Positions 690-57,039 of a stretch of 64,000 nt of DNA are shown here, in pieces; position 1 is the stretch's first letter; each line of letters begins with the position of its first letter. The notes below the pieces were generated by a model. That model did no database searches, was not told the origin of the DNA, and worked only from the letters and a program-made list of their open reading frames with translations. Source of the DNA: Candidatus Moraniibacteriota bacterium (GTDB lineage: Bacteria; Patescibacteriota; Minisyncoccia; Moranbacterales; GCA-2747515); assembly GCA_046116545.1 (NCBI GenBank), contig CP175956.1:705734-769733 (forward strand), read 5' to 3'. A program made the translations under genes and the position numbers.

Positions 690-695
690 CATTGT

Positions 696-1695
696 TGACG
701 TAAAAAACGTCACAAATACATTAACAATTGAAAAATGACTTAGAGACAAATTTCAAAGGAGTCTATCATCTCTGTGGTGAAGAATATACAATTATGTATT
801 CGTATATCTATAAATATATGATACATAATTGTATATTTTTCCCAAATACCTATAAAAGGCACGCCTGTGCCACAAATCAAAGGAGGTGATTTTAAATGAG
901 GAGTCCGCCAATGCAGAACATTCAATCTATTAAAGTAATGTGAATCTACCCCGGCCGCCGGCACACGCCATAAAGTTGCGGTGCCAAACCCGCGCTCCCA
1001 ACCTGTCGCAAGGGAGCATTATAAAAAAAGCGATAAATTCCGGACGTGCCTATATTGAAAACGGCCTTATCCGGAAAGGAGAACACATGAAAATTCCCTG
1101 CCACCAGCGACGATGCTGGCATAGGTGGTTTGGTTAGCTGTTTCAAAAATGAATTACTGTCTACAGTATCAAGTTAGAAGGTCAAAATATGACCACTGTA
1201 GATATTCATTACTGTTGTAATTCATGGCCCGCAGCCGTGTCCGATTTTACGGACAAGCGGGAAAACATACAAATTACACAACCGTTCGTTGACTCCCAGC
1301 CGGCATTCGCCCTATAGGCGGTGCTGACATGGAAGATTTGTCTCTAGTTTCATCTACACTATAAAGCTCACAAACGATTTAGTGAAACAAATCACCGTGA
1401 GCGTAGTAGAGATAGAATTATCCCCACCGCCTCAAACCCGGCCACAGTCGCATCGGGCATTACGTACTCAAGTTTACAAAGAGAGCACGTACGCACCCGC
1501 TGCTATGATTCTGAGAGGCCCCGTAAAAAGGCACAACTGTTTGATGATTTTATCCTGTCCATACCATGACCGCCCCAAATATAATTTGGAGCCGGCCAAG
1601 CAATTTGGAAGGATATATCACAAGTAGTGCCACGCTGGTTGGGAGTCATTTTTTTAAATGTATTGAAATATAACGGGACCATTAGCAAAAGCTTT
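696..1695 (+). ncRNA. candidate large structured non-coding RNA (unclassified)
   Basis: About 1 kb with no credible ORF. GC content is strongly elevated (long stretches near or above 50%) in an otherwise ~30% GC window. It lies between a consensus promoter (660-689) and a hairpin plus T-tract (about 1650-1700). Only short mutually overlapping ORFs on both strands are present. Confidence 0.3.
896..943 (+). CDS. 15-codon mini-ORF (MRSPPMQNIQSIKVM) behind a perfect Shine-Dalgarno sequence
   Basis: AAAGGAGGTGA at 878-888, 9 nt spacing to ATG at 896, stop TGA at 941-943. It sits inside the candidate RNA. Confidence 0.2.
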   Translation: MRSPPMQNIQSIKVM

Positions 1696-1700
1696 TGGCC
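1650..1700 (+). terminator. weak intrinsic terminator-like hairpin plus T tract
   Basis: cgggacc...caaaagcttttg...ggccccg followed by tttttctttatc. Confidence 0.3.
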
Positions 1701-1733
1701 CCGTTTTTCTTTATCTATTTTTATTTTATACTA

Positions 1734-5903: not shown

Positions 5904-6452
5904 TTACTCACCTTGAACCTCTGCGAAGTAAAGAATATAACCATTCAAGTCCTTAATAACAAATTCATCAGCTCCATACCAGGTCTTATGCAAGTCTTTT
6001 ACAATCTCAACTTTATTTTTTACTTTTTCATAAAAATCTTTTGTATCCTGCATAGAAATATATAGAGTGAATGTTCCGCCAATTTCTCGCCCTTTCATAT
6101 CTTGTAATTCTGCAATAAACCCATCCTGCCTTTGCAACATTATCTCAACCTCACCATTTTTAAGCATTGCCCAGACAAGCGGTTTTCCAGTAGCTCCATC
6201 CCCTTTTTCTTCATCTATTACCATCACAGTCTTAAATCCTAAATTATTTTTGTAATAATCAACAGTTGCGTTCACATCAGCAACCATCATGTTTGGTGAA
6301 ATTTTTTTCATAGTTTTTGTAGTTAAATGATTAATTGACTCATTAGAACTTTGATTGGACCCATAGTTACTGCACTTCAAAAAATTAAACACAGTCAAAG
6401 TAACAATTGTTACTCCCATGGCCAGGATTAATAATCCCCAAAGTTTTTGCAT
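5904..6452 (-). CDS. VOC/glyoxalase-bleomycin-resistance family protein with N-terminal membrane anchor
   Basis: N-terminal TM then a glyoxalase-like betaalphabetabetabeta module (VADVNATVDYY...GGTFTLYISMQD...VKDLH). Confidence 0.55.
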   Translation of the reverse strand: MQKLWGLLILAMGVTIVTLTVFNFLKCSNYGSNQSSNESINHLTTKTMKKISPNMMVADVNATVDYYKNNLGFKTVMVIDEEKGDGATGKPLVWAMLKNGEVEIMLQRQDGFIAELQDMKGREIGGTFTLYISMQDTKDFYEKVKNKVEIVKDLHKTWYGADEFVIKDLNGYILYFAEVQGE

Positions 6453-6509
6453 AGTTTTTTAACATTATTTATTAAATTACTATTTTATTATACCTATTTC
6501 AACTAGTTA

Positions 6510-7271
6510 TTAATTGTACAAAATCGACATAGTCTCATTACTCGGATTATTACCCGTTAATTTTTTATAATCACGATTAAAATGTGCTTGATCAAAATAC
6601 CCCGAAGACAATGCTACTGTAATCAAATTCTCTAAACCTTCTTTAGAAATTTTTTTATGAGCTTTTTGAAACCTCATAATACGAGCAAATTTTTTTGGTG
6701 TTAACCCCATTTTTTTGCTAAAAACTCGTTCTAGATTTTTAGAGGACAAACCATAAATACTTGATAACTTATCAATCATCATATTTGGATTATCGGTCAA
6801 ATCTATTAAAGCGTGCAGAAAATCATCATTCAACTCATGCTCTTCAAAAATATTTTCAAGTAATGGTGTAATTATTGAAACAATCTCATCATTTTCTGCA
6901 AATATATCAATACTCAACTTTTTGTAGATGTCTTCATTTAATTTCCTTAATTCAATCATACTATTAGTTAATTTACTCATATCAGTACCGAGTAAATAAA
7001 ACAAAATTCCAGGTTTGAAACGAATTCCAAAAAATTCCATACCACTAGGAATTGGTATTAGTTGAGCTTCTTCCATAATACCCGTTACAAAAGTATCATT
7101 GACTCCTTCTAATTTTTTAGAGTTATTAAGATAAAATATAATATCACTGCACCCATCAGGTACAACTGGCCAATTTATCACCTCCCCTAAAGTATTTCTA
7201 GAAAACCAAAAAGCATCAATATATTTTTGCAAATTGCTATTTGGTTTAAATTCTATAAGCTGAGTTATCAT
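6510..7271 (-). CDS. AraC-family transcriptional regulator
   Basis: C-terminal AraC-type HTH (KLSSIYGLSSKNLERVFSKKMGLTPKKFARIMRFQKAHK). Confidence 0.75.
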   Translation of the reverse strand: MITQLIEFKPNSNLQKYIDAFWFSRNTLGEVINWPVVPDGCSDIIFYLNNSKKLEGVNDTFVTGIMEEAQLIPIPSGMEFFGIRFKPGILFYLLGTDMSKLTNSMIELRKLNEDIYKKLSIDIFAENDEIVSIITPLLENIFEEHELNDDFLHALIDLTDNPNMMIDKLSSIYGLSSKNLERVFSKKMGLTPKKFARIMRFQKAHKKISKEGLENLITVALSSGYFDQAHFNRDYKKLTGNNPSNETMSILYN

Positions 7272-7274
7272 TAT

Positions 7275-7532
7275 TTATTTTTCAATTCTATCAACAGTTA
7301 TAATTCTAAAAGTATTTGAATTTATAGTTATTTTAATATTATTTTCTATGTTGGTAACATAGAAATTTTTCCCAATTTTTGAGAAAGACTTTATTTCAGT
7401 TTCATTTAAAATTTTAGATATCAATTCTTCTATTTGTTTTTTTGAAAATTTGATATTAAGTTTTTTATTTATTCTCTCATAAACAAGTTCTGTATAACAA
7501 ATATTATTTAATATTTCTTTTTTATCTATCAT
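7275..7532 (-). CDS. hypothetical protein
   Basis: 85 aa, 4 nt downstream of the AraC gene, likely co-transcribed. Confidence 0.4.
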   Translation of the reverse strand: MIDKKEILNNICYTELVYERINKKLNIKFSKKQIEELISKILNETEIKSFSKIGKNFYVTNIENNIKITINSNTFRIITVDRIEK

Positions 7533-7753
7533 TGCAATATGTAAATCAGATTTTTTATAAACATTATCCCCACGTAAAGTTTTTTTAATCTTCTAGTATT
7601 TAATTACATCCCTTTGTGGTGCAATTTCCTTTTTGTAATTTGTGGTTTTTTTGAATTTTTGTTCTTTGTGCCCCTCCTTTATCAAATCACCATAAGTTTT
7701 TTTGCCAACACTTTCATTAAACCAATCTAATAAGTATATTATAGCATAAAAAA

Positions 7754-7792
7754 AGTCCAACTCTTTATTTATAAAGAGTTGGACTGTATGTT
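7754..7792 (-). terminator. intrinsic terminator (14-bp perfect stem)
   Basis: agtccaactctttatttataaagagttggact followed by a T-run on the minus strand. Confidence 0.6.
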
Positions 7793-7812
7793 CTGCTTTT
7801 CATAACATTGTG

Positions 7813-8016
7813 TTACATAACATTTTCACAATAATATTTTCTATGTATTGCAGCCATCTTACTACCATCAGGGTCAATGACTTTTATCATTTTACTTATC
7901 TCCTCTATCGAAGAGACATCATCAGATGTATTTCGTTGTTCAAAAGATTTGTTTCGTCGCTCCCAAAAATCCATCATGTGCATACGTACATGCATTGGTT
8001 GTATAACTTTAGCCAT
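7813..8016 (-). CDS. hypothetical small protein (start revised to MAKVIQ...)
   Basis: GGAGG lies 7 nt upstream of the ATG at 8014-8016. The ORF-track start at 8118 lacks an RBS. Confidence 0.4.
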   Translation of the reverse strand: MAKVIQPMHVRMHMMDFWERRNKSFEQRNTSDDVSSIEEISKMIKVIDPDGSKMAAIHRKYYCENVM

Positions 8017-8136
8017 AATTATCCTCCAATGTTCATTGTGAAACAACGTTAATTTTCTCTCTATTAAAATTATACCACAAAATTCAAAACACATCTCAAA
8101 TGAAATGTGTTTATACAATATTCTTGCAACTGATAT

Positions 8137-8667
8137 TTATTCAAGAACTAATTTTTTGTATTCAAATCTATTTAGATTATCTGCTATGTCTTGATAACCT
8201 TTACCACAAACCATGCCACCAGCAATAAAATCTTCCTCAGTAACGTCAGCAAGACAAAAATCAGGCATCTGAAAATTATCTTTTTCATCTATAGATTCAA
8301 ATTCAACATCCACAAGAATAAGTCCTTTTAAAGCATCCTGAAAAATATCAAACTCAACAATTGTCCCATTATAATCATAATTATATCTTATTTTACGCAC
8401 TCTCTTTCCTTTAATCTGTTGATTTAATGCATCAAATTCTTTTTCAGTAAGAACTATAGTCTGCTCTCTAGCATGTGAATGATCTCCTTCATCAATAAGC
8501 TCTTTTTTTGTTAATTCAAAGTTATCACCATCTTTACGCAATCTTAAACTGGGATGCACACTTGCTTTTGGGATATACACATCAATAATTTCCTTAAACT
8601 TACATTCACCTAAATTTTGAGGAAGTTCTTTCGCTAAATATGTTTTTTCTATTTCAATCATATACAC
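8137..8667 (-). CDS. CYTH-domain protein (triphosphate tunnel metalloenzyme family)
   Basis: N-terminal EIEKTY motif and RLRKDG..ELTKK pattern typical of the CYTH/CyaB-ThTPase fold. Confidence 0.55.
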   Translation of the reverse strand: MYMIEIEKTYLAKELPQNLGECKFKEIIDVYIPKASVHPSLRLRKDGDNFELTKKELIDEGDHSHAREQTIVLTEKEFDALNQQIKGKRVRKIRYNYDYNGTIVEFDIFQDALKGLILVDVEFESIDEKDNFQMPDFCLADVTEEDFIAGGMVCGKGYQDIADNLNRFEYKKLVLE

Positions 8668-8696
8668 ATAAATAAATTATTCTAATTAAACAATTG

Positions 8697-9050
8697 TTAA
8701 TTACCTAATTCTCCACAATGAAAAAAATAATTACATCGATCACTTGAATCAAGGGTAATTAAGTAGACGCCTCTAAAAGTCTTGGTGTTATTATCATCAT
8801 CTGTATATATTAATTGCCATTTAACTGTATATTTGTCATTAACAGCAGAAAACACTTCAGTTTCAATAGAAATATTTTGTTGTCCTTTAACATATTCCCA
8901 TTCTTTTCTTAAATTACCAAAACTAGATACTTTTAAAAATGGTGTTTCCCAATATTCAACATCTTTTGAAAATAGACTTAGTACTTTTTCAATGTCATGT
9001 GTTTTCCAAGACGACTGAAATTGACTTAACCATTTCTCTATTTTTTTCAT
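8697..9050 (-). CDS. NTF2-like (SnoaL/DUF4440-type) small protein
   Basis: 117 aa; W/F-rich alpha+beta cone pattern. Confidence 0.4.
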   Translation of the reverse strand: MKKIEKWLSQFQSSWKTHDIEKVLSLFSKDVEYWETPFLKVSSFGNLRKEWEYVKGQQNISIETEVFSAVNDKYTVKWQLIYTDDDNNTKTFRGVYLITLDSSDRCNYFFHCGELGN

Positions 9051-9152
9051 ACAAACTTAGGACTTATTAAGAATATTAAATACTATTTTGTACAACTAAT
9101 TTTTATATGGAAAATTGTACATTAGTAAAATTATCTATACATTACAGAAATT

Positions 9153-9527
9153 TTATTTTAATCCCAATCGTTTCTTGGCAATTTTGTATTGTTTTGAATT
9201 TAATTGTCCGTTGGCTCGCATCTCTTCTATTTGCTTAGCCATTTCCTCTTTACTTTCACCATCAGCTCCACCTTGTTTTGCAAATGCTTGTGCAAATACT
9301 TCTTGTCGTTTCTCAGGTGACATTTTTTTAAGTCCTTTAAGTGCCATCTTTTGCATTCGTCCCATTTTGGGCATTCCTGGCATATCTCCAGCAAGCATTT
9401 GGTCTATCATTTCATCTGTGATTTCAGGCATTTGACCACCAAGCATTTCTTCAGCTTGTTTTTTTGCAACTGCTGGTTCAATTTCTTTTTTCTTTTCTTT
9501 CTTTTTGAACATGTCCTTAAATCCCAT
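9153..9527 (-). CDS. hypothetical Met/Lys-rich protein
   Basis: 124 aa with a GDMPGMPKMGRMQKM segment reminiscent of the Ffh M-domain tail. Last gene of the secD-secF string. Confidence 0.4.
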   Translation of the reverse strand: MGFKDMFKKKEKKKEIEPAVAKKQAEEMLGGQMPEITDEMIDQMLAGDMPGMPKMGRMQKMALKGLKKMSPEKRQEVFAQAFAKQGGADGESKEEMAKQIEEMRANGQLNSKQYKIAKKRLGLK

Positions 9528-9553
9528 ATTTCTATTATTTTAAATATTATTAC

Positions 9554-10477
9554 TTATTCATCATTTCCTTGTGCATTTTTTTGCACATTATAAATTGATA
9601 CAACTAAAGCTGTTGCTATAAACATTGATGAATATGTACCAATTAATACACCTATCAACAACGCCAATGAGAAATTAAACAATGAATCTCCTCCAAATAA
9701 AATTATCGGGAGTAATACCAAAACAACTGTAAATGAAGTATTAAATGACCTCGCAAGTGATTCGTTCAATGATTTATTTACTAATCCTTCAAAGTCAGTA
9801 ATTGACCTAGTCCTAAGAACATTTTCGCGAATTCTATCATAAACAACAATTGTATCATTTACACTATAACCAAGTATTGTCAAAAGTGCTGCTACAAACG
9901 GAACACCCACTTCTATATCAAAAAAATATCCAAGTGTTGCAAATATACCTAATGTAATAATTATATCGTGCGAAAGTGCAGTTACAGCACCTATCCCATA
10001 ATACCAAGATGATACTGGTACAGATACCTTACGAAATGCCCATGCAATATAAAGTAATATTGCGATGGTTGCAAATATAATTGCCTTTATCGCATTTGCT
10101 TTTAATTGTTTTGAAACAGTTGCTCCTATAAAATCAGCCTTTAATTGAATGCTTCCTTCATCAATTTCAGTCACTGCAACAATCACCTTTTGATTAAATT
10201 CTTCATCTGATTGTTTATATCTGATAATAATACTCTTTCCGTGATCTCCTTCACTTCCTGAAACTACAAAGCTATCATCACAATCTGCATCAATTTTTTC
10301 ACATATTGCATCACGTGTAATTTCTTTATCAGCACTCACAGAAAACTCCATAAGCGTACCACCTACAAAATCAATACCCGGCTTAATGCCCCACATAGCA
10401 ATTGCAAATACACTAAGTCCAACTAAAACAGCTGACAAAACATATGTATATTTTCTTTTTCCTATAATATTTAACAT
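9554..10477 (-). CDS. secF: protein-export membrane protein SecF
   Basis: Typical SecF N-terminus and periplasmic loop, then 5 TM helices. Immediately downstream of secD. Confidence 0.85.
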   Translation of the reverse strand: MLNIIGKRKYTYVLSAVLVGLSVFAIAMWGIKPGIDFVGGTLMEFSVSADKEITRDAICEKIDADCDDSFVVSGSEGDHGKSIIIRYKQSDEEFNQKVIVAVTEIDEGSIQLKADFIGATVSKQLKANAIKAIIFATIAILLYIAWAFRKVSVPVSSWYYGIGAVTALSHDIIITLGIFATLGYFFDIEVGVPFVAALLTILGYSVNDTIVVYDRIRENVLRTRSITDFEGLVNKSLNESLARSFNTSFTVVLVLLPIILFGGDSLFNFSLALLIGVLIGTYSSMFIATALVVSIYNVQKNAQGNDE

Positions 10478-10480
10478 AAT

Positions 10481-12184
10481 CTATTTTTTATTCTGATTTA
10501 GTTTTTCCTTAACATTAGGCATTATTAACCATTGTCTCTTTTCTAACCATTCTCCAGCTACATATTTCATGATAATCTTTACAATTACAATTGCTGTAAA
10601 CATTGACACTAGCACACCGATTATCAAGATAAGTGCGAAACCTTTTACAAAACCAGTTCCCATGGCCATTAGTATCAATGAAGTAATAATTGTTGATAAA
10701 TTACCATCTCGTATAGATGGCCATGCTCGACGAAAGCCTTCATCAACTGCCCTTTTGATATTCTTACCCATTCTTAGCTCTTCTTTAATTCTTTCAAAAA
10801 TAAGTACATTTGCATCCACTGCCATACCTACAGAAAGTACAAGCCCTGCTATCCCAGCCAAAGTCAACGTAATTGACATGGGAGTAAGGCCTGAGAGTTT
10901 AAATATTGAAATAAGTGTTGCCGCATAAATACCTAGAGCCACCGAAGCAATAATCCCAAAGAATCTGTAATACAAAATCATATAGATCATAACCAAGACT
11001 AACCCTAACAAACCAGCTCGCATACCTTTTTGCAACGCTTCTGCTCCAAGAGTCGCTTCAATGCTTTGTTGAGATACTAGCTCAAAGGGCACTGGCATAG
11101 CACCCTCATTCAAACTTCTAGCCAGCTCTTTTGCTTCTTCTATTTCGAAATTTCCTGAAATAACAGCAGTTCCATCAACTATCTCAGCCTGTACAGTAGG
11201 CGCACTAACAACCTGATTGTCAACATAGATTGCTACTGTTTTACCAAGATTTCTCTTTGTAATGTCAGCAAACATCTTTGCACCATCTGAATTAAAAGAC
11301 AATGTAACTTGTGGTTCAGATGCTCCAACTCCATTGCTATACCCAGCCATTGCATTATCTAAAAATTCCCCAGTTAAATCAGTGTTTTTATAAGGATCTG
11401 CAGGCACAGTCATTTTTGCAAACAAAATGTGTTGACCTTTTACTTCTCTGTCATCACCCTCACCCCGAGATTCTAATTTCTTTATAATATGCCAACCAAA
11501 ATCAGTCTCAACTAATTCTTGATTAGTATCACCATCATTCATGTCCTCATTAAACAACACATCATCAAATTCTGGTACATATTGACCTCTTTTTACAAAT
11601 TCAAGCTCACCGCCATTTTCTGCACTTCCTGGGTCCTTACTAAATTCTTTTGCTAACTCAGAAAAATCTTCACCATTTTTTATTCTTTCCAATACAGCAT
11701 CAGCTTCTTCTTTGTTCTCTTCATTCATTGGCGCAAGCATTTCCTCCATTTGTTTTTTATCATTTTCAACCTCTTCCTCAGTCTTTTCTTCTTTAAATTG
11801 CAAAATAGGTGCTTTTTGTATCACATTTTTAACATCCTCAGCATTTTCAACACCAGGGATCTCTACAGTCATAAACGTATCACTACCTCGCTCTGCCAAC
11901 CATACAATAGGCTCTCCTACACCATATGCATTAATTTTTCGCTCTGCTGCTGCTTGTACAGCGTCCTTTGCAGCATCTTTTTGATCATTTGGCGTATTTG
12001 ACAAATCTAACAAATACTCAAGATGTAACCCACCTTGCAAATCAAGTCCTAAATTAATTGCTACTTTATCAAACTTACTTTGAATATTTTCTGGCATATA
12101 CTGAACAAATGGCAATGCTATAATTGCCATAATAAGAGTAAACACCACTACATATATAAACTTTCTTCTATTTTTCTTGTACAT
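10481..12184 (-). CDS. secD: protein-export membrane protein SecD with an inserted parvulin-type PPIase domain
   Basis: SecD hallmarks (DLQGGLHLEY; P1-head segment TVAIYVDNQVVSAPTVQAEIVDGTAVISG; 6 C-terminal TM helices). A PpiC/parvulin signature (FSELAKEFSKDPGSAENGGELEFVKRGQYVPEFDDVLF...FGWHIIKK) is inserted at residues ~150-245. Confidence 0.85.
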   Translation of the reverse strand: MYKKNRRKFIYVVVFTLIMAIIALPFVQYMPENIQSKFDKVAINLGLDLQGGLHLEYLLDLSNTPNDQKDAAKDAVQAAAERKINAYGVGEPIVWLAERGSDTFMTVEIPGVENAEDVKNVIQKAPILQFKEEKTEEEVENDKKQMEEMLAPMNEENKEEADAVLERIKNGEDFSELAKEFSKDPGSAENGGELEFVKRGQYVPEFDDVLFNEDMNDGDTNQELVETDFGWHIIKKLESRGEGDDREVKGQHILFAKMTVPADPYKNTDLTGEFLDNAMAGYSNGVGASEPQVTLSFNSDGAKMFADITKRNLGKTVAIYVDNQVVSAPTVQAEIVDGTAVISGNFEIEEAKELARSLNEGAMPVPFELVSQQSIEATLGAEALQKGMRAGLLGLVLVMIYMILYYRFFGIIASVALGIYAATLISIFKLSGLTPMSITLTLAGIAGLVLSVGMAVDANVLIFERIKEELRMGKNIKRAVDEGFRRAWPSIRDGNLSTIITSLILMAMGTGFVKGFALILIIGVLVSMFTAIVIVKIIMKYVAGEWLEKRQWLIMPNVKEKLNQNKK

Positions 12185-29695: not shown

Positions 29696-29789
29696 AATGA
29701 TATTATATCACAAACAAGTTTTAAACACTATTTTCTATAGACAATCTACTATTTTTATGCTATGTTTATTTTATTATTGATTAATGAAG

Positions 29790-30178
29790 TCCTTTATACA
29801 AAGGATAGGAATATCGAGTTGAGGGTTATCCATCCCTCTAATTTTCTCTCTCAGCAAAGGCGTCACTGATAAAAGAATGGTGATCATTGCCTCTTCATTG
29901 AGGAGTGTCACTATCATACGCGGTCGTCAAATAGACTAATGTATTACCGTCAATTGTGCACCTCTCATTTAAAGAAATTTAATTGAGAGATTGATACTGA
30001 ATGGGTGTTGATTCAAAAAAAGGATCACGGTAACTCCACAAATAGTCTTTTATAAGAAATTTAATTTTTTATTTAAAGATCAGAGAGCCCAGATCGAATT
30101 CCATGACTCGAGGGTCTGGCTGAGCATTATTCAATGATACCTAAAGCATATGTATGCACCATATGCTTTTTTATTTTG
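29790..30178 (+). ncRNA. candidate non-coding RNA (unclassified), ORF-free, ending in a strong intrinsic terminator
   Basis: 580-nt region without any ORF of 60 aa or more; somewhat elevated GC; plus-strand terminator at 30144-30178. Short RNase P-like strings (CACGGUAACUCCAC...AAAUAG) occur but no consistent model. Confidence 0.25.
30144..30178 (+). terminator. intrinsic terminator (plus strand)
   Basis: aaagcatatg-tatgcac-catatgcttt followed by tttattttg. Confidence 0.6.
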
Positions 30179-30204
30179 TCATCATAGCTATAATCATACA
30201 TTTG

Positions 30205-30240
30205 AATAATAGAAAATGACCACAGTAGCTGTGGTCATTA
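30205..30240 (-). terminator. intrinsic terminator for the 30278-30667 gene
   Basis: atgaccacag-tagc-tgtggtcat: 10-bp stem, then ttttctatt on the minus strand. Confidence 0.6.
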
Positions 30241-30277
30241 AATCTAGCGCTAACTTCTTTTGTAAATTTTAATTATG

Positions 30278-30667
30278 TTATTCATCAAAATATGGTGACT
30301 TCCATGATGGATTGCGATTCTTTAATTCATCCGATATACCAAAATAAATACATGTATTTCCAACTTCAGCCTTACCTTTGTCTTTACATTGTTTTGTGAC
30401 ATCATCACAAATTGGCAAACATTCACTTTTTTCTAACCCATACTCACGATATTCTGCCATTAAAGATTCACATTGGAGATGGCACATAACCTCATCTTCA
30501 CTTTGAGGAGGCTCAGAAAGCCGAGAACCAGCAATTGTATCCACTGATGTTTTTATACCTTGTCCTATTGCTGCTTGTTCTTCTGGTGTTTTGTCACAAC
30601 CACCCAGAAGTCCAATTGCAAAAAATACTATACCAACGGCAAATACTTGATAAGTTTTATTTTTCAA
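30278..30667 (-). CDS. lipoprotein with Cys-rich C-terminal region (hypothetical)
   Basis: Lipobox LLGGC plus 8 further Cys residues. Confidence 0.55.
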   Translation of the reverse strand: MKNKTYQVFAVGIVFFAIGLLGGCDKTPEEQAAIGQGIKTSVDTIAGSRLSEPPQSEDEVMCHLQCESLMAEYREYGLEKSECLPICDDVTKQCKDKGKAEVGNTCIYFGISDELKNRNPSWKSPYFDE

Positions 30668-30812
30668 AATAATTCACCTCCTGCCATAATTTTTGTTTTT
30701 ATTTGTACTACTAACTTTTATATTTAATACTGTATCATGCAAAAACACTAATAACAACAACTAGCCACATTAAAAATAAGTCATTGACTTATAGTATTTT
30801 TTCTATCAAAAA

Positions 30813-30843
30813 GGTCCAACCTAGGGTCAACCCTAGGTTGGAC
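30813..30843. repeat. palindromic element GGTCCAACCTAGGGTCAACCCTAGGTTGGAC
   Basis: Near-perfect 31-bp palindrome just downstream of the sortase gene. Confidence 0.7.
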
Positions 30844-30859
30844 ATTGTCTCATTAATAC

Positions 30860-31873
30860 CTATACTTCTTCAAGTTGTGCTTTCACCATAATTCTACGAG
30901 CGTTTGTACCAAGTGGCCAACAAGTTGTAAGTGTTAATTCCTGTGATTGCGTATCAGCAAATATACGACTATCATCTGGAGCAACCTCCTCGTTCAAGGT
31001 TACAACATATTTATAGTTAATCTCTTTTCCATTTTGTTGTTTTGTTTTTACTATTATCTCATCGCCATCAGTAAGATCATTGAGATTTTTAAAAATATTA
31101 TCATAAATCCCCTTTGACCAAATATAATTACTGCTATGTCCTGCCACATACATATTTCCACGTCTACCAGGCATTGCAGTGCCTGGATAATGTATTACAC
31201 CATCATTTAAATCTTCTTGTAACTTCTCTTCTGCTGCATCATTAGATAATACAACTGGCACCTCTACATTTATTTTATTTATTTCTACAATTATTTCTGG
31301 ACGAATATCTCCCAATGCCATGGGATCATACCCATTATTCACCTCATCACCGTCACTATATCCATCACCGTCTGTGTCAGATTTTTTTGGATCTGTTCCA
31401 AATATATATTCATCATAAATAACCAATCCATCATTATCACTGTCATCAAATTCATCACTAACTAACAATCCCATGTTATCAATCTCCCACTTATCTGGTA
31501 TATTGTTTGAATTTGTATCCATAAGTCCACTTCCATTTGGAGAATAGCCATTTTCTATTTCATCACCGTCACTATATCCATCACCATCTGTGTCAGATTT
31601 TGTAGGGTCCGTCTTATATTTATACTCAGCGACAAGTGATAAACCATCATTATCAATATCAAGCTCTGCATCTATAAAATTATTAAGAGTTACATCATAT
31701 TTAGTCAACCATTCCTCAGGCACGCCAAAATCATCCTTATCACGAGGATTACCCTTATCATTTGCAACTGGCACAATAGATTGATTTACTCGACCAAGTA
31801 TCCCACTCAACAGAGAAAAAACTATTATAAAGGTTACAAAAAAAGCAATTGTTGATATTAAAAACCTTTTCAT
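30860..31873 (-). CDS. sortase-family transpeptidase with N-terminal TM anchor and two thrombospondin-type-3-like Ca-binding repeats
   Basis: C-terminal sortase motifs YVAGHS and TLTTCWP. Two copies of KSDTDGDGYSDGDE (DxDxDG Ca-binding loops). Confidence 0.75.
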   Translation of the reverse strand: MKRFLISTIAFFVTFIIVFSLLSGILGRVNQSIVPVANDKGNPRDKDDFGVPEEWLTKYDVTLNNFIDAELDIDNDGLSLVAEYKYKTDPTKSDTDGDGYSDGDEIENGYSPNGSGLMDTNSNNIPDKWEIDNMGLLVSDEFDDSDNDGLVIYDEYIFGTDPKKSDTDGDGYSDGDEVNNGYDPMALGDIRPEIIVEINKINVEVPVVLSNDAAEEKLQEDLNDGVIHYPGTAMPGRRGNMYVAGHSSNYIWSKGIYDNIFKNLNDLTDGDEIIVKTKQQNGKEINYKYVVTLNEEVAPDDSRIFADTQSQELTLTTCWPLGTNARRIMVKAQLEEV

Positions 31874-31923
31874 ATTCTAATATTATTTATCAGCCTATTT
31901 ATAATATTCCCATTTACCCCCAT

Positions 31924-31953
31924 GTCATTCCTGCGAAGGCAGGAATCTTACGG
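31924..31953. repeat. short hairpin member of the GTCATT family
   Basis: GTCATTCCTGCGAAGGCAGGAATCTTACGG: 8-bp stem with a GAAG loop. Confidence 0.5.
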
Positions 31954-32127
31954 TAGACAACATGTTGACCAAATTAATCATAATAAGCAATAATACCACA
32001 TTAAAACCACTTTGTCAAACACATATGCTTGACAATTACTCTTTTTTATGCTATTTTTAAACATCGTACCTAGTACGACACATAATTAGAAAAGTTTTAT
32101 AACAACTCAATATACGGAGGATTACCT

Positions 32128-32334
32128 ATGCAAGCTACCTCAAAAAAACCACCTCATTACATTTGTCCAAATAATTGTGAGGAAGTTTATTTTTATCAAG
32201 ATGGACTACTTGAGGCGACTCGAACTTTTGATGAAGATGGTACAGACATGGCTGATGAAACATTTGATTTCTCAGCAAAAACAGAAATGAAATGTTTTCA
32301 CTGTAACTCTGTTGCCATTATCAATAAATCCTGA
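32128..32334 (+). CDS. small zinc-ribbon protein (hypothetical)
   Basis: GGAGG RBS 8 nt before the ATG; CPNNC...CFHC pairs; a terminator follows. Confidence 0.5.
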   Translation: MQATSKKPPHYICPNNCEEVYFYQDGLLEATRTFDEDGTDMADETFDFSAKTEMKCFHCNSVAIINKS

Positions 32335-32364
32335 CTTGTTTATTAAGTTATAGAAAAATATAAA

Positions 32365-32410
32365 CCGCCAGACAACATATACATGTTACTGGTGGTTTTT
32401 TCTTTTTTTA
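32365..32410 (+). terminator. intrinsic terminator
   Basis: ccgccag-N17-ctggtgg followed by ttttttctttttttac. Confidence 0.55.
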
Positions 32411-32417
32411 CTACATC

Positions 32418-32519
32418 GTCATTGCGAGTGTCGCCATCTTTTGTGCCACAAGCGAAGCAATCTCATTAAGTTTAAAAATATCTTAACGAGATTGCTTCGT
32501 CGTACCTCCTCGCAATGAC
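32418..32519. repeat. MITE-like nested-hairpin element (GTCATTGCGAG...CTCGCAATGAC), family copy C
   Basis: 11-12 bp terminal inverted repeat and inner stem gaagcaatctc/gagattgcttc. The 3' 33 nt are identical to the copy at 58527-58559 except for one base. Confidence 0.7.
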
Positions 32520-32533
32520 CCAAAAGACAAAAA

Positions 32534-32565
32534 GGTCCAACCTAAGATCGACCATAGGTTGGACC
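32534..32565. repeat. palindromic element GGTCCAACCTAAGATCGACCATAGGTTGGACC
   Basis: Copy of the GGTCCAAC family, 14 nt from the MITE-like element. Confidence 0.7.
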
Positions 32566-32585
32566 TTGTCCAGCTAAAATAAAAC

Positions 32586-33692
32586 CTAAAAATTCTTTCC
32601 AATATACTCCATCAACTTACTTCCCTGTAATTCCTGTGTTGCTGCGCCTGCTCTTATGAAAAATTCTTCTTTTTGCCCTTCTTTTAAAAAAACGGGTACA
32701 TCCGAACTAAAACAATCTATTCTAAATACTTGTTTATCATCTATATTAACTACTTCAGACTGTATTGAGCTAGCGAATTGCTCCCCTATATGTTGATTAA
32801 ATAAATTTGTAAAATGTAATTGAAATTTATCATTATTTATAAAATTATCTTTTCCTAACCCTAGCACGTCCCCACCATCATTAACGCCTACAAACAATAT
32901 TCCGCCTTCAGCATTCAAAAACGCACAAATAGTTTTAAGAACTGCATGCTCTATTCTCTTATCCTTCTCATCTGTATGCAAATTCACTCTCAAAGTTGAT
33001 TTGAATTCTACTGTGTTATTTTCCCCTGATTTTATTATTCTTACACTATCATCACCCATTGATTTTAATTTTCCTCCGTGCGATGGATTTGTGGCAAAAA
33101 ACTTTCCCATAAGCTTACCCATGATATTATTTGACCCATTTTCCAAATACTGATATCCAGCAAATGACACTATGAGTGCCCCTACCATAATACTTGCTAC
33201 AGCCCCTATTTGATTCCACACAGAATCTGTCTGCATATTACCTCCAGAAACTAAAGCCTCTATAATATTTTCAAATATGATCCAAAGCAAACTAAATGCT
33301 ATAGAAAAAGTGAATGCAAAAAGTGAAACAAAAAAAGGACTTAATCTAAGTGAATTTTTATGAAATTTATTCATAGCATAAACTAACATAAACGCAATCA
33401 TTCCAAATAACGCTCCACTAATAACATGCATTACGACTTCAAATAAAAGTGATTGCGTATGCACAAAAATAAGTTCGTCAACAATCAAAGACATACCCAC
33501 AAACAATGCTAGTGCTATCTCAATTTCTTGTGGATATCTAACTGTAGACTTTCGAAAAAAGAAACGTAATCCGAAAATAGCTAAAATCGTAATGATTGAA
33601 AGAAAAAATGTAACCCAACTTTCTCGCAAAAAAGCAAGTGTAGTCAAGCTAACTAATAAAAAATATATAAAAAAATAAACTAAATTTTTCAT
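32586..33692 (-). CDS. membrane protein with C-terminal AlbA_2/Schlafen-like domain
   Basis: About 190-aa polytopic N-terminal region, then ENNTVEFKSTL...LKTICAFLNAEGGILFVGVNDGGDVLGL, matching the AlbA_2 (PF04326-like) core. Confidence 0.5.
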   Translation of the reverse strand: MKNLVYFFIYFLLVSLTTLAFLRESWVTFFLSIITILAIFGLRFFFRKSTVRYPQEIEIALALFVGMSLIVDELIFVHTQSLLFEVVMHVISGALFGMIAFMLVYAMNKFHKNSLRLSPFFVSLFAFTFSIAFSLLWIIFENIIEALVSGGNMQTDSVWNQIGAVASIMVGALIVSFAGYQYLENGSNNIMGKLMGKFFATNPSHGGKLKSMGDDSVRIIKSGENNTVEFKSTLRVNLHTDEKDKRIEHAVLKTICAFLNAEGGILFVGVNDGGDVLGLGKDNFINNDKFQLHFTNLFNQHIGEQFASSIQSEVVNIDDKQVFRIDCFSSDVPVFLKEGQKEEFFIRAGAATQELQGSKLMEYIGKNF

Positions 33693-33694
33693 AA

Positions 33695-33859
33695 TTAATC
33701 CTTTTTTATTTCTTCTGTTTCATCATCAACTAAAAATGGGGATGGTTCTTTATTTTCAGTTGTTACATTATTTACTTGTTTATTTTCAGTTACATCTTGC
33801 TGTATGTCATCTGTTAAATCTAATTTTCCACCACCAAACATTTTTGAAAAAAATCCCAT
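33695..33859 (-). CDS. possible 54-aa acidic small ORF immediately upstream of the AlbA_2 gene
   Basis: MGFFSKMFGGGKLDLTDD... Its stop lies 2 nt before the next ATG; no clear RBS. Confidence 0.15.
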   Translation of the reverse strand: MGFFSKMFGGGKLDLTDDIQQDVTENKQVNNVTTENKEPSPFLVDDETEEIKKD

Positions 33860-34015
33860 ATCTTTATAAAACTAATTTAAATAAATACTATATTATCTAC
33901 CCAGTATACCACATGAAGTTCTGCTGACAATGCATGTATTATTTAGTATATTTATTTGTTATACTTATTATAAATAATATAATTTTTGTACATTACAAAC
34001 AAAAGGAGAAACTTC

Positions 34016-34447
34016 ATGCAAAGAATTCCCTACACACCCCTTAATAAAAATATAATTCCAATACAACCAATACATCTTATTAAGTTGGGTAAAAAACAAA
34101 ATTCAACACATCCAGATCCTGAATTAGCTGCAAAATTGTTAGCCAAATCAAAACCATTAGTTACTGGAGGAATGAATCTTAGTTTAATCTTAGGGAGATA
34201 TGTCCCTGTAGTAACTATTTTAAAACTAAAAGAAGCAAATATTCACGGCTGGACATTACAAAAAGAATCAAATGAGTATTTCTTAGAGTATTTTGAAAAC
34301 GGCTCTGATTGTCCCTTTTGTGAACTAAAGTTAACTAATGATTCTCCTTTTTTTCTTGCAGGAGTAACTGATTCATGTTGTGAAGCCACAACAAATCCTT
34401 CTGTAATCATAGGTGTTATAGACTATGTACTTTCACATATGCCTTAA
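34016..34447 (+). CDS. hypothetical protein (start revised to MQRIPYTPL)
   Basis: AAGGAG RBS 7 nt before the ATG at 34016; CPFC and CC pairs. Confidence 0.45.
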   Translation: MQRIPYTPLNKNIIPIQPIHLIKLGKKQNSTHPDPELAAKLLAKSKPLVTGGMNLSLILGRYVPVVTILKLKEANIHGWTLQKESNEYFLEYFENGSDCPFCELKLTNDSPFFLAGVTDSCCEATTNPSVIIGVIDYVLSHMP

Positions 34448-34454
34448 CACAAAA

Positions 34455-34488
34455 AAAAGCTCTTCAACATAATTGTTGAAGAGCTTTT
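34455..34488. terminator. bidirectional terminator (14-bp perfect stem)
   Basis: aaaagctcttcaac-ataatt-gttgaagagctttt. Confidence 0.65.
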
Positions 34489-34514
34489 AACTTTGCAGCA
34501 AAAATAATTATAAA

Positions 34515-38166: not shown

Positions 38167-38463
38167 AGTTATTTTTTATTAATGATTAACTATTTATATC
38201 TAGATTATACAAAACTTTATTTTTTTATGCAATATTAAAACCAAAGATTCCTGCCAAAATAATTATTAATATATCACATCTTAATTTTGCTCACCAATCA
38301 TATTGCCAAAACCTATTTTCTGTGTTATGATACATCGTTATGTTATTATAAATTTACATTGTTAAATCCAAGCTGAAAAATGTCTAGATATGAGATAGAT
38401 AATGTATAATGAAAATAACTATTATTTAGTAAGTAATCTTGATCTACTTATAGTCTCCCCTAA

Positions 38464-38495
38464 GGTCTAACCTAGGGTCGACCCTAGGTTAGACC
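38464..38495. repeat. perfect 32-bp palindrome GGTCTAACCTAGGGTCGACCCTAGGTTAGACC ending 10 nt before the 38506 ATG
   Basis: The sequence equals its own reverse complement; central GTCGAC flanked by CCTAGG. It sits at the minus-to-plus strand-switch region. Confidence 0.75.
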
Positions 38496-38505
38496 TTTAT
38501 ATAAA

Positions 38506-39771
38506 ATGAAAAAAATATCTGAAAAATATGATGTAGTTGTAATAGGTGGCGGACCATCTGGCATGATGTGTGCTGGACGAGCTGCTGAGCTTGGTGCACG
38601 TGTTTTATTGTTGGAAAAAAATGCATCTCTTGGCAATAAGCTTATGCTTACAGGTGGTGGCCGATGTAATATTACTAATGCTGATTTTAATACTGATTCA
38701 TTTTTGAATAACTTTGGTGATGCTAAAAAATATCTCTTTTCCCCATTCTCACAATTTTCTGTTGAAGATACTTTTGACTTTTTCCAACAACGTAACCTTC
38801 CACTAGTAACAGAGGCTAGAAATCGTGTTTTTCCAGAAACACAAAATGTACAGGATGTATTTAATGTTCTAACACAATACATGAAAGATGGCAGTGTAAC
38901 CGTAAAAACTAATACGCAGGTTTTATCACTAGAACGTGATGATAAAAAAATATTGCTAGTAACTGATACGGACCATAATAAATATGAAGCTAATAGCTTT
39001 GTAATTGCAACTGGCGGGCTTGCTGCTCCAGAAACAGGTGCTACTGGTGCTGGGCTTAACTTTTTAGAAAAGATGGGTCATAAAGTTCATGCTTCCAATC
39101 CAAATTTAGTACCACTACGAACAAGTGCTAAGTGGGTTAAAAACCTTTCGGGAATCACATGGTCTTTCATGAAAATACGATTCGTACAAGATGACAAAAC
39201 TCAAGTTCGCAAAACTGGTAAAATTCTCTTTACTCACTTTGGTGTTTCTGGACCACTTATCATAAATTCAGCTAGTGAAGTTAAAGAACTGTTGAAAAAA
39301 GGACCTGTCACAGCAGTTATTGATCTATTTCCTGACACTGATGAAAAAGTTCTCGATAAACGAATCATCAAATTATTTGAAAAAAATCAAGATAAAAAAT
39401 TGAAAAATCTTTTACCTGAAATGATTTTTAAAAGTATTGCCCTTGAGATACTGGCTATGCCCCATTTAAAGCTAAGTTATACCGAAGCAAAATTCATAAC
39501 AAAAGAGAAAAGAAAAGCTCTTGTACACACATTAAAAAATCTCACATTTCCTATTACAGGTACTTGTGGGATGGACAAAGCGATTGTTGCTGATGGTGGT
39601 ATAGAGTTATCAGAAGTTGATTTCAAAAATATGACTTCACGTAAATATTCGAATCTTTATCTAACTGGTGATATACTAAATATAAATAGACCTTCTGGCG
39701 GTTTTTCACTACAACTATGTTGGACAACTGGATTTGTAGCAGGAACCGATATTGGAAATAAAACAAAATAA
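38506..39771 (+). CDS. HI0933-like FAD-dependent oxidoreductase (aminoacetone-oxidase family flavoprotein)
   Basis: N-terminal VVVIGGGPSGMMCAGRAAELGARVLLLEKN dinucleotide-binding motif; GGGRCNITN typical of the HI0933 family. Confidence 0.8.
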   Translation: MKKISEKYDVVVIGGGPSGMMCAGRAAELGARVLLLEKNASLGNKLMLTGGGRCNITNADFNTDSFLNNFGDAKKYLFSPFSQFSVEDTFDFFQQRNLPLVTEARNRVFPETQNVQDVFNVLTQYMKDGSVTVKTNTQVLSLERDDKKILLVTDTDHNKYEANSFVIATGGLAAPETGATGAGLNFLEKMGHKVHASNPNLVPLRTSAKWVKNLSGITWSFMKIRFVQDDKTQVRKTGKILFTHFGVSGPLIINSASEVKELLKKGPVTAVIDLFPDTDEKVLDKRIIKLFEKNQDKKLKNLLPEMIFKSIALEILAMPHLKLSYTEAKFITKEKRKALVHTLKNLTFPITGTCGMDKAIVADGGIELSEVDFKNMTSRKYSNLYLTGDILNINRPSGGFSLQLCWTTGFVAGTDIGNKTK

Positions 39772-56169: not shown

Positions 56170-57039
56170 TTAAAACTCATCAACAAAAAAATCCCGATAC
56201 CAAAGTTGCAAATTCTTTTTTGTTTTTTCTAATTCCTCGATTGATTCAAAAATACCAAAAACTGTTGGACCTTTTCCTGATATGGATGTAACTCGTGCGC
56301 CAAATGCCTGCATTGCATTTTTTATTTCTCCTATTACATAACATTGCTCTTGTGCAACAAATGCAAAATCATTATATACATATTGCACGATATCATCCAA
56401 TGTATGATGACTTTCTTTCATACTAAGTGTAATATTTTTTCTGTCATCATCACTCATAAACCATTGTCTTTGGTCTAACTGTCCGTATGCCCATGGCGTA
56501 CCAATTTCTTCTTTTGGATTTACTACAAGTATTGACAATTGAGGGAAATCAAAAAGGCTCTCCACATCTTCTCCAGTTCCACTTACATAAGCAGCGAATG
56601 CATCTTGAAGAAAAAATGGAATGTCCTTACCTACTTCAGATGCTATTTTAACAAGTTCTTCATTACTAAGTTTATCTTCAAAATACTCATTAAGCGCCAA
56701 AAGCACACTTGCGCCATCAGAACTGCCACCACCCAAACCGGCCAACATCGGGATTCTTTTTGTAATTATCATTTTCACACCAACTCGCCTCCCAATTTTA
56801 GCAAAATACTTCTGTGCAATTTTCCAACAAATATTTTGCTCATTTGTTGGCACATCAGGATTATCACACTCAATCGAAATACTCTCACTATCCTCATCAA
56901 ACTCAATAACCACAGTATCATACAAGTTTTGAGATTTCACCATAATAGACCGAATCTCATGAAATCCATCAGGATATTTCTTTACAACCTCCAAACAAAG
57001 ATTAAGTTTCGCCGGCGCCGTCATTTGAATCTTTTTCAT
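56170..57039 (-). CDS. ispE: 4-diphosphocytidyl-2-C-methyl-D-erythritol kinase
   Basis: GHMP kinase motifs PAKLNL and PMLAGLGGGSSDGAS. Confidence 0.85.
   Translation of the reverse strand: MKKIQMTAPAKLNLCLEVVKKYPDGFHEIRSIMVKSQNLYDTVVIEFDEDSESISIECDNPDVPTNEQNICWKIAQKYFAKIGRRVGVKMIITKRIPMLAGLGGGSSDGASVLLALNEYFEDKLSNEELVKIASEVGKDIPFFLQDAFAAYVSGTGEDVESLFDFPQLSILVVNPKEEIGTPWAYGQLDQRQWFMSDDDRKNITLSMKESHHTLDDIVQYVYNDFAFVAQEQCYVIGEIKNAMQAFGARVTSISGKGPTVFGIFESIEELEKTKKNLQLWYRDFFVDEF

Follow-up and report, generated by a model that had tools for sequence, protein, structure and literature searches.

A window of 64,000 nucleotides (64 kb) from a genome of Candidatus Moraniibacteriota, a member of the Patescibacteria or candidate phyla radiation (CPR) with 32% GC, contains four related palindromes, here called c1 to c4. 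We regard them as probable members of a family of non-autonomous mobile hairpins that resemble repetitive extragenic palindromes (REPs) and REP doublets forming hairpins (REPINs), and that would be mobilised in trans by a transposase similar to the REP-associated tyrosine transposases (RAYTs). An earlier note on this DNA had offered three interpretations of the palindromes, as REP-like elements, as terminators or as sites of a dimeric binding protein. The first of these draws support from the dispersal of the copies, their conserved ends around variable and paired centres, their presence and absence among relatives, the existence of in-frame copies and the association with RAYT-like genes. A mobile element is likelier than a regulatory site because hairpins of the same family lie beside and inside REP-type transposase genes. 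Related loci from other genomes are cited by number below.

The four palindromes of the window

All four palindromes described in the earlier note were found again. Once the flanking AA/TT are counted, each copy measures 36-37 bp, and the common arms read AAGGTCYAAC...GTTRGACCTT. Palindrome c1 (506-542, AAGGTCCAACATTCGGGCAATCCGAAGGTTGGACCTT) is 37 bp long and has the centre TTCGG-GCAAT-CCGAA with one A.G mismatch. The 36-bp copy c2 (30811-30846, AAGGTCCAACCTAGGGTCAACCCTAGGTTGGACATT) departs from the master sequence AAGGTCCAACCTAGGGTCGACCCTAGGTTGGACCTT by two changes, G>A in the loop and C>A in the right arm, and c3 (32532-32567, AAGGTCCAACCTAAGATCGACCATAGGTTGGACCTT), likewise of 36 bp, carries three substitutions in the centre. 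A perfect 36-bp palindrome is formed by c4 (38462-38497, AAGGTCTAACCTAGGGTCGACCCTAGGTTAGACCTT), whose arms GGTCTAAC and GTTAGACC bear a compensated change, C>T on one side and G>A on the other. Together with the CCCT that extends it to the left (38458-38497), c4 matches the 40-nt form of locus L122, 38 of the 40 nt being identical to the hairpin within the RAYT gene of that locus. As c2, c3 and c4 are each removed from the master by two to three substitutions, the window copies look like an old or decaying population.

The arms GGTC(C/T)AAC...GTT(G/A)GACC that had been ascribed to the whole set are present in c1, c3 and c4, whereas the right arm of c2 has one mismatch, for which reason c2 falls outside the strict pattern used below. 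The centre of c1, which had been singled out as different, does differ from the others within the window but is not unique to it: the TTCGG-loop-CCGAA type is the usual form in other Moranbacteria (L085, L101 and L133, in the last of these within the RAYT gene).

The strict pattern GGTCYAAC-N10-20-GTTRGACC has three matches in the window versus 0.00 in 100 shuffles, and the 8-mer GGTCYAAC was observed nine times versus 1.09 expected, a count that no shuffle attained. Seven of these nine sites fall in c1-c4; the other two, at 56264 and 56472, are intragenic and at chance level. Each copy is predicted to fold into a single long hairpin, with energies of -23 to -29 kcal/mol as RNA (z -5.2 to -7.0) and of -13.6 to -16.6 kcal/mol as single-stranded DNA (z -6.3 to -7.7). 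BLAST comparison of the 250-nt flanks of c1-c4 revealed no extended homology, c2 and c3 alone sharing a few extra bases (CAAAAAGG...TTGTC). At the gathering threshold, no Rfam family was found at any palindrome in the whole window or in 30 CPR loci, where the matches consisted of the RNase P RNA that adjoins one copy, plus tRNAs. ARAGORN found no tRNA or tmRNA at the palindromes of the window, and a literature search with the arm sequences returned unrelated primer and miRNA matches alone.

A hairpin family of CPR bacteria

A scan of one genome per species with the pattern AAGGTCYAAC-N10-20-GTTRGACCTT yielded at least 117 loci, which are of three kinds: terminators with an A-run and a T-run, a conserved element of Clostridia, and CPR loci. 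The CPR part comprises about 30 loci among the matches listed and extends over Saccharibacteria, Collierbacteria, Minisyncoccales, UBA6102, UBA5738, Moranbacteria and a bin labelled 'Pacearchaeota'. The arms of the listed CPR copies are all extended alike, to AAGGTCYAACC(T/C)T...A(A/G)GGTTRGACCTT, and their centres vary in sequence and length with the pairing kept; the arms stand 8 to 18 nt apart across the family. Within each arm, AAGG and CCTT enclose TCYAA and so make up a small nested palindrome, which measures 4 bp in the window copies and is longer in L076 and in L101 (TCCGAAGG-TCCAA-CCTTCGGA). The whole element can thus be described as two inverted nested palindromes around a spacer.

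Pairing was assessed in 29 distinct family sequences, trimmed to 15 nt per arm. In this set 98.2% of cells are paired, and both sides have changed in 8 of the 15 pairs. The covariation score of 0.353 compares with 0.124 in shuffles, none of 500 being as high, and sliding the partners abolishes the pairing.

This pattern bears on the proposal that the palindromes are operators of a symmetric dimeric DNA-binding protein, that is, sites of a regulon, or else DNA-uptake signals arranged in inverted pairs. The arms do form a perfect dyad, two of the copies are situated just upstream of start codons, and CPR bacteria are thought to rely on DNA uptake. Still, we consider operators or uptake signals very improbable. 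The arm distance is variable, substitutions in one arm are matched by compensating ones in the other, copies are found within coding sequence and 3' of genes as well, and no common function connects the neighbouring genes. Known uptake sequences are far denser than these palindromes, and isolated arms occur at chance level. The dimeric binding site suggested earlier therefore fits poorly with the variable spacing, the co-varying arm bases and the copies in coding sequence.

The arms also recall the attC recombination sites of integrons, the core consensus of which is RYYYAAC (R'') and GTTRRRY (R'), and GTCCAAC and GTTGGAC fit this consensus in all four copies. We rejected an attC identity and give it hardly any credence, since no tyrosine recombinase was detected among the window ORFs scanned, the copies do not form a cassette array (successive ones are 30 kb, 1.7 kb and 5.9 kb apart), and the elements are short, almost perfectly paired duplexes of 36 bp, whereas attC sites measure at least about 55 nt and contain extrahelical bases.

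Two kinds of scan matches were set aside as not homologous to the CPR family, namely the A-run/T-run terminators of Bacillota and Bacteroidota and the Clostridia hairpin AAGGTCTAACTGATCAGCAAAAATCAGTTAGACCTT, which accounts for about one third of the genome-scan matches listed. The latter occurs with fixed flanks in L005, L006, L009 and about 40 more loci of Oscillospiraceae and other Clostridia as well as on the viral contig L123; it probably belongs to a mobile element common to many genomes and is unrelated to the CPR hairpins. L123, the single match in a scan of viral contigs, was accordingly discarded as an unrelated terminator-like hairpin of the Oscillospiraceae type.

Within the CPR loci, a sub-family (L007, L023, L040, L057 and L114, viewed over the palindrome and 120 nt on either side) displays a conserved two-hairpin element of about 150 nt, TTCGGATTCTCTGGGA...TTTAAAATACAAAT...CCCAGTGAGC. 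It is found in several CPR lineages beside unrelated genes, has conserved flanks, and could represent either a miniature element of larger size or a small RNA. The bin DAOSDI01 (L013, L031, L040, L057 and L070), labelled Candidatus Pacearchaeota archaeon, contains a bacterial class-A RNase P RNA (L031, 4183-4578) and many CPR palindromes, and is probably a bin of CPR bacteria that was mislabelled or contaminated.

A hairpin inside a Y1 transposase gene

A metagenome scan for the window-type centre, in a collection that evidently lacks the source metagenome, gave a single match, L122, and this match is located within the ORF of a 229-aa Y1_Tnp protein (PF01797, 6e-9), where the palindrome encodes DKVQPRVDPRLDL. 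Outside the window this centre, CCTAGGGTCGACCCTAGG, was found only in two RAYT-like ORFs, those of L122 and L141. Many homologues possess a peptide of the form P-K-V-Q/R-P...R-L/S-D/N-L-R at the same loop upstream of the HUH motif, which corresponds to CCT AAG GTC CAA CC...GG TTG GAC CTT AGG read in frame. In the DNA of six such genes the palindromes are perfect and display compensated arm variants (GGTCCAACC, GGTCCGACC, GGTTCGACC, GGTTCAACC and GGCTCAACC). Codon pairs covary among 17 homologues: Q is combined with L ten times and R with S five times, with no mixed pair, V or I goes with D or N in 14 of 14 cases, and A goes with S or C in 3 of 3. To judge from these sequences, the intragenic hairpin is selected at the nucleic-acid level, its pairing being kept while the amino acids change.

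The variants inside the gene recur in copies around it. L135 contains five palindromes with lineage-specific arms (AAGGCTCAACC/GGTTGAGCCTT), one located 17 nt before the ATG, two in the ORF, one 48 nt after the stop and one after the next gene, and its intragenic and dispersed copies match in the arm variant GGCTCAACC. The GGTTCAACC variant of L129 is common to the intragenic copy and a copy 1.9 kb away. In L017, about 18 nt are common to an intragenic half-unit and a palindrome that precedes the gene by about 10 nt, a mini-palindrome follows the stop, and the arm variant again matches between the gene and the dispersed copies.

The RAYT-like gene directly follows the leucyl-tRNA synthetase (LeuRS) gene in four Moranbacteria lineages (L122, L133, L134 and L141), a position that fits the behaviour of single-copy, vertically inherited RAYTs. 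The same slot is occupied by a Sua5/YrdC gene in the window. No tnpB partner was seen beside the RAYT-like gene in the loci examined.

Two further surroundings of the gene were observed. In L129-L132 (about 6000-10700) it adjoins a diversity-generating retroelement with reverse transcriptase, bAvd and 23S_rRNA_IVP-type genes, and one palindrome lies between the bAvd and the reverse transcriptase gene. In L138-L140 it is placed between a Mur ligase gene and murB in a cell-wall cluster, an arrangement conserved on three contigs, which suggests a stable, vertically inherited placement.

The associated protein is known from related loci only. Its matches to Y1_Tnp (PF01797) range from 6e-9 to 1e-10, above the cut-off, and NHYH is invariant in 54 homologues; there are more than 6000 homologues, many of them from CPR bacteria and some labelled by JGI as 'REP element-mobilizing transposase RayT'. 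The NCBIfam model NF047646, 'REP-associated tyrosine transposase', is the best NCBIfam match for all four proteins tested and the sole match for three of them, with scores of 27-43 bits that remain below the 80-bit equivalog cut-off. A sequence search of the CPR RAYT against the PDB gave no match. An AlphaFold model based on 54 homologues (pLDDT 84.3) has its best PDB fold match in 4ER8_A, the E. coli RAYT with a REP hairpin (E 1.1e-4, probability 1.00, TM (target) 0.60), and the TnpA proteins of ISDra2 and IS608 rank behind it. The palindrome-encoded residues (about 66-78 of P0121) form a lower-confidence stretch of the model that separates two helices and precedes the strand running into the HUH motif, and are predicted to belong to a surface or peripheral loop upstream of HUH. 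The proteins, of about 222 aa, have the motifs NHYH, FQ, YIHLNP or YVNxNN and a YSS tail, which resemble those of subclass 2.1 as assigned from a published table and not by a phylogenetic test (PMC6006769). No REPs were found for subclass 2.1 (PMC6006769).

Presence, absence and in-frame copies

Relatives differ in the presence of c4. It is missing at the orthologous leader in four relatives, the flavoprotein of which is 74-89% identical, and GGTCYAAC has zero occurrences in the approximately 64 kb, mostly syntenic, of these four relatives. Compared with L124, the window contains an extra segment of about 144 nt (38353-38496, plus strand) that ends in c4 and is situated between a conserved promoter-like site and the ATG; in the leader of L124 the conserved promoter-like TGTTATGAT is about 30 nt from the ATG. 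The 17-mer AGATATGAGATAGATAA occurs in exact form both in this segment (38386-38402) and in L141 (6681-6697), there directly after the LeuRS stop and 160 nt upstream of the RAYT-like gene, and among 142 loci it is present in these two lineages only. This hints at a derivation of the c4 segment from a LeuRS-RAYT junction.

Family members are also found in frame in genes for conserved proteins. The copy in uvrC of L101 encodes KSEGPTFGIPKVGPSD, a peptide present in three of 23 close homologues and not in the nearest (82-88% identity); another is situated in the interdomain linker of wecB in L084, and a third in a glycosyltransferase gene of L024. The LeuRS ORF of L122 (11-2374) contains the peptides SRLRGNDN and CHSELDSES...IPDQVRDD, which look like translations of other short palindromic repeats. 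If they are so derived, several repeat families insert in frame in CPR genes.

It might be argued that c1-c4 are relics of decayed RAYT-like genes, of which the intragenic hairpin is the last recognisable piece. Such an origin would be in line with the finding of the centre CCTAGGGTCGACCCTAGG, outside the window, only in the RAYT-like ORFs of L122 and L141 and with the link that the 17-mer provides between the c4 segment and the LeuRS-RAYT junction of L141. However, no protein similarity was detected by tblastn around any copy outside the palindrome itself, the flanks of c1-c4 are not homologous to each other, and gene decay would explain neither the copies that lie in frame within uvrC, wecB and the glycosyltransferase gene nor those beside unrelated genes. 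We therefore consider an origin from gene decay improbable compared with dispersal as mobile hairpins.

Genomic setting and possible terminator function

All four copies are intergenic, as the earlier note had reported, and its description of them as mostly downstream of minus-strand genes applies to c2 and c3 and fails for c1 and c4, which are located 5' of genes. Copy c2 lies 13 nt beyond the stop of a sortase gene (30860-31873, minus strand) and c3 18 nt beyond the stop of a DUF2238/AlbA_2 gene (32586-33692, minus strand). On the minus strand they are followed 3' by CTTTTTGATA and TTTTTGTCTTTTG, respectively, and TTTTTG trails both of them on the gene strand. By contrast, c1 is found 16 nt upstream of the tyrS ATG (489, minus strand), downstream of minus-strand promoter-like sites at 630-594, and c4 is found 8 nt upstream of the ATG of an HI0933-like flavoprotein gene (38506-39771, plus strand) and is preceded by a promoter-like site of the TG-extended -10 type, which is conserved among relatives. 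The T content at these two copies is limited to TTTAT.

The setting of c2 and c3 raises the question whether the palindromes are primarily intrinsic (Rho-independent) terminators or mRNA-stabilising stem-loops, whose likeness would result from terminator selection or from a sequence-specific RNA-binding factor. The short distances past the stops and the TTTTTG that comes next speak for this explanation, and in a terminator scan c2 passes (minus strand), while c3 has the tail and its stem fails the scan rules. In each of the four window copies the T-rich side points in the direction in which the neighbouring gene is transcribed. Elsewhere in the family, the L031 member is placed directly 3' of the RNase P RNA gene, and the L085 copy 12 nt after a stop. 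On the other side, c1 and c4 stand between promoter and start codon, most CPR members among the matches listed have no T tract after the stem, some copies reside inside ORFs, the other terminators of the window are unrelated in sequence, and c4 is missing at the orthologous site in the four relatives. Termination or mRNA stabilisation would also leave the clustering around and inside the transposase gene unexplained, and we judge it unlikely to be what primarily defines the family. The terminator function proposed earlier is accordingly retained at most as a side effect of mobile hairpins, for c2 and perhaps c3, both of which probably act as transcription terminators as well.

Both c2 and c3 are positioned at borders of lineage-specific gene content. 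Variable segments (29696-30859 and 31874-34500) are interspersed between the conserved genes for a beta-helix protein, the sortase and a DUF308 protein, and the genes for a 129-aa lipoprotein-like protein and the DUF2238/AlbA_2 protein are not present in L128 and L133.

A second, unrelated nested palindrome is found beside c3 (about 32410-32520, in the region 32400-32525), with the structure GTCATTGCGAG...CGAAGCAATCTCATTAAG-11 nt-CTTAACGAGATTGCTTCG...CTCGCAATGAC; it has the appearance of a further family of short palindromic repeats. Next to c1 there is a stretch of about 1 kb (690-1712, plus strand) with 45-52% GC and a GC-rich core at 850-1650, in a genome of 32% GC. This stretch contains no ORF of more than 81 aa and has no Rfam match even at E<=1. 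A near-consensus promoter-like site is found at 660-688, and about 1676-1712 there is a terminator-like hairpin accompanied by a T run. The folding of bases 850-1712 has a z of -8.0 (20 shuffles), and the stretch may represent an undescribed large structured RNA.

Comparison with known systems

REPINs have been described as elements with conserved ends, a variable spacer, a conserved hairpin and nested palindromes (10.1101/2022.05.22.493013), and the architecture of the CPR element agrees with this published description. The CPR family shares with the REP/REPIN-RAYT systems of Gammaproteobacteria (E. coli, Pseudomonas, Stenotrophomonas) the dispersal of short palindromes in intergenic DNA, the conserved inverted ends, the nested palindromes and the variable paired spacer, as well as a low-copy Y1 HUH gene that has its own variant of the repeat on its flanks. 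The REPtron arrangement, with a repeat within about 200 bp of the gene, is realised at the level of the family (L135, L017) and not in the window. Among solved structures, the E. coli RAYT-REP complex 4ER8 comes nearest to the CPR protein. Differences lie in the much shorter CPR elements (36 bp overall) and in the protein, which scores far under the NCBIfam RAYT cut-off and has motifs like those of subclass 2.1. A parallel to the hairpin inside the transposase gene is known from tnpAREP genes of subclass 2.4 in Cyanobacteria and Bacteroidetes, in which REPs are inserted in frame (Quentin et al. 2018, PMC6006769). There, as in the CPR gene, the REP is placed within its cognate ORF, in a peripheral loop and with the frame intact; in contrast, the CPR hairpin is situated upstream of HUH, at the same position in many homologues, and its compensatory changes alter amino acids.

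Rickettsia palindromic elements resemble the CPR family as palindromic repeats that occur in frame in conserved protein genes. They measure about 100-150 bp and are not known to have a transposase linked to them, and a further difference is that none of the four window copies is intragenic. The IS200/IS605 elements have subterminal hairpins on each side of a Y1 gene and give rise to short non-autonomous derivatives, the palindrome-associated transposable elements (PATEs). Hairpins flanking a Y1 gene and the two-hairpin element of about 150 nt in the CPR sub-family are points of likeness; the CPR gene differs in its syntenic position after LeuRS in four lineages and the lack of a tnpB partner in the loci examined, and the fold of its protein is nearer to RAYT than to the TnpA of IS608 or ISDra2.

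REP-RAYT systems as such are already known, and so are REPs located inside tnpAREP genes and palindromic elements that lie in frame. In the literature searched, no paper was found to connect Patescibacteria with REP, REPIN or RAYT. What appears undescribed in it is the system in Patescibacteria, the tie to a subclass-2.1-like protein, the footless hairpin, the wide conservation of the ends, and an intra-ORF hairpin upstream of HUH with compensation that alters amino acids.

Several observations weigh against our interpretation of c1-c4 as mobile hairpins. The canonical 5' GT[AG]G foot of REPs is lacking, neither GTAG nor GTGG being present at the foot of any copy, and we note that the atypical REPs of subclasses 2.6 and 3 are likewise without it (PMC6006769). 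The arms are conserved across CPR classes, unlike those of typical, species-specific REPs, and the local density is low: the 64 kb contain four copies, and another 10.8 kb from the same lineage contain none. No RAYT gene accompanies the window copies: tblastn and Pfam searches revealed neither a Y1 transposase gene nor a remnant of one in the 64-kb window, nor any other transposase or integrase, and tblastn with eight RAYT homologues at E <= 50 returned palindrome-encoded peptides alone. The 144-nt segment is possibly bordered by a 7-nt direct repeat (TTATAAA/TTATATA), and Y1 transposases make no such repeats. The uvrC and wecB copies are located in variable linkers, with a net length change of 4-5 residues, so that a clean insertion is unproven in comparison with solved UvrC and WecB structures. 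In the genome CALNYG01 the variants differ between the intragenic copy of L134 (GGTTCGACC) and the outside copy of L085 (GGTCCAACC), the centres being similar. Finally, the pattern used to pick the first 30 CPR loci kept the arms constant at most positions; variants at positions 5, 6 and 8 of the arm stem from loci found independently via the transposase gene.

Possible mechanism of dispersal

If c1-c4 are mobile hairpins of the REP type, the element would fold on single-stranded DNA, e.g., on the lagging-strand template, and would there be recognised, cut and rejoined by a Y1 HUH transposase of the RAYT type, as the family of the associated protein suggests. This transposase would be encoded elsewhere in the genome and act in trans. 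The source genome presumably has or once had a cognate transposase gene, and the window copies would be orphans with no such gene within 64 kb. Copies c1 and c4 would be transcribed as strong stem-loops in 5' leaders.

A more far-reaching interpretation, which we put forward tentatively and with the balance rather against it, is that these elements belong to an undescribed, ancient system of the REPIN-RAYT type in Patescibacteria. Such a system would comprise a subclass 2.1-like branch thought to be REP-less, ends that are near-constant across classes and an intragenic hairpin under selection, which could be a master or self-recognition copy, or an autoregulatory structure, and the window copies would be its dispersed offspring in a genome that has lost the transposase or keeps it elsewhere.

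Implications

CPR genomes, about 1 Mb in size, are as a rule portrayed as streamlined. A persistent selfish or domesticated hairpin family together with a single-stranded DNA transposase would, if our interpretation is correct, add a layer of mobile DNA to these genomes, and REPIN-RAYT biology would reach far past Proteobacteria, into a branch reported to be REP-less. The odd peptides encoded by in-frame palindromes in annotated CPR proteins would likewise be explained, and the intragenic hairpin would provide a clean natural case of nucleic-acid structure kept in coding sequence at the expense of the amino acids. For the annotation of CPR metagenome-assembled genomes, the motif is of practical use as a marker of terminator-like hairpins, of assembly breakpoints and of regions that vary.

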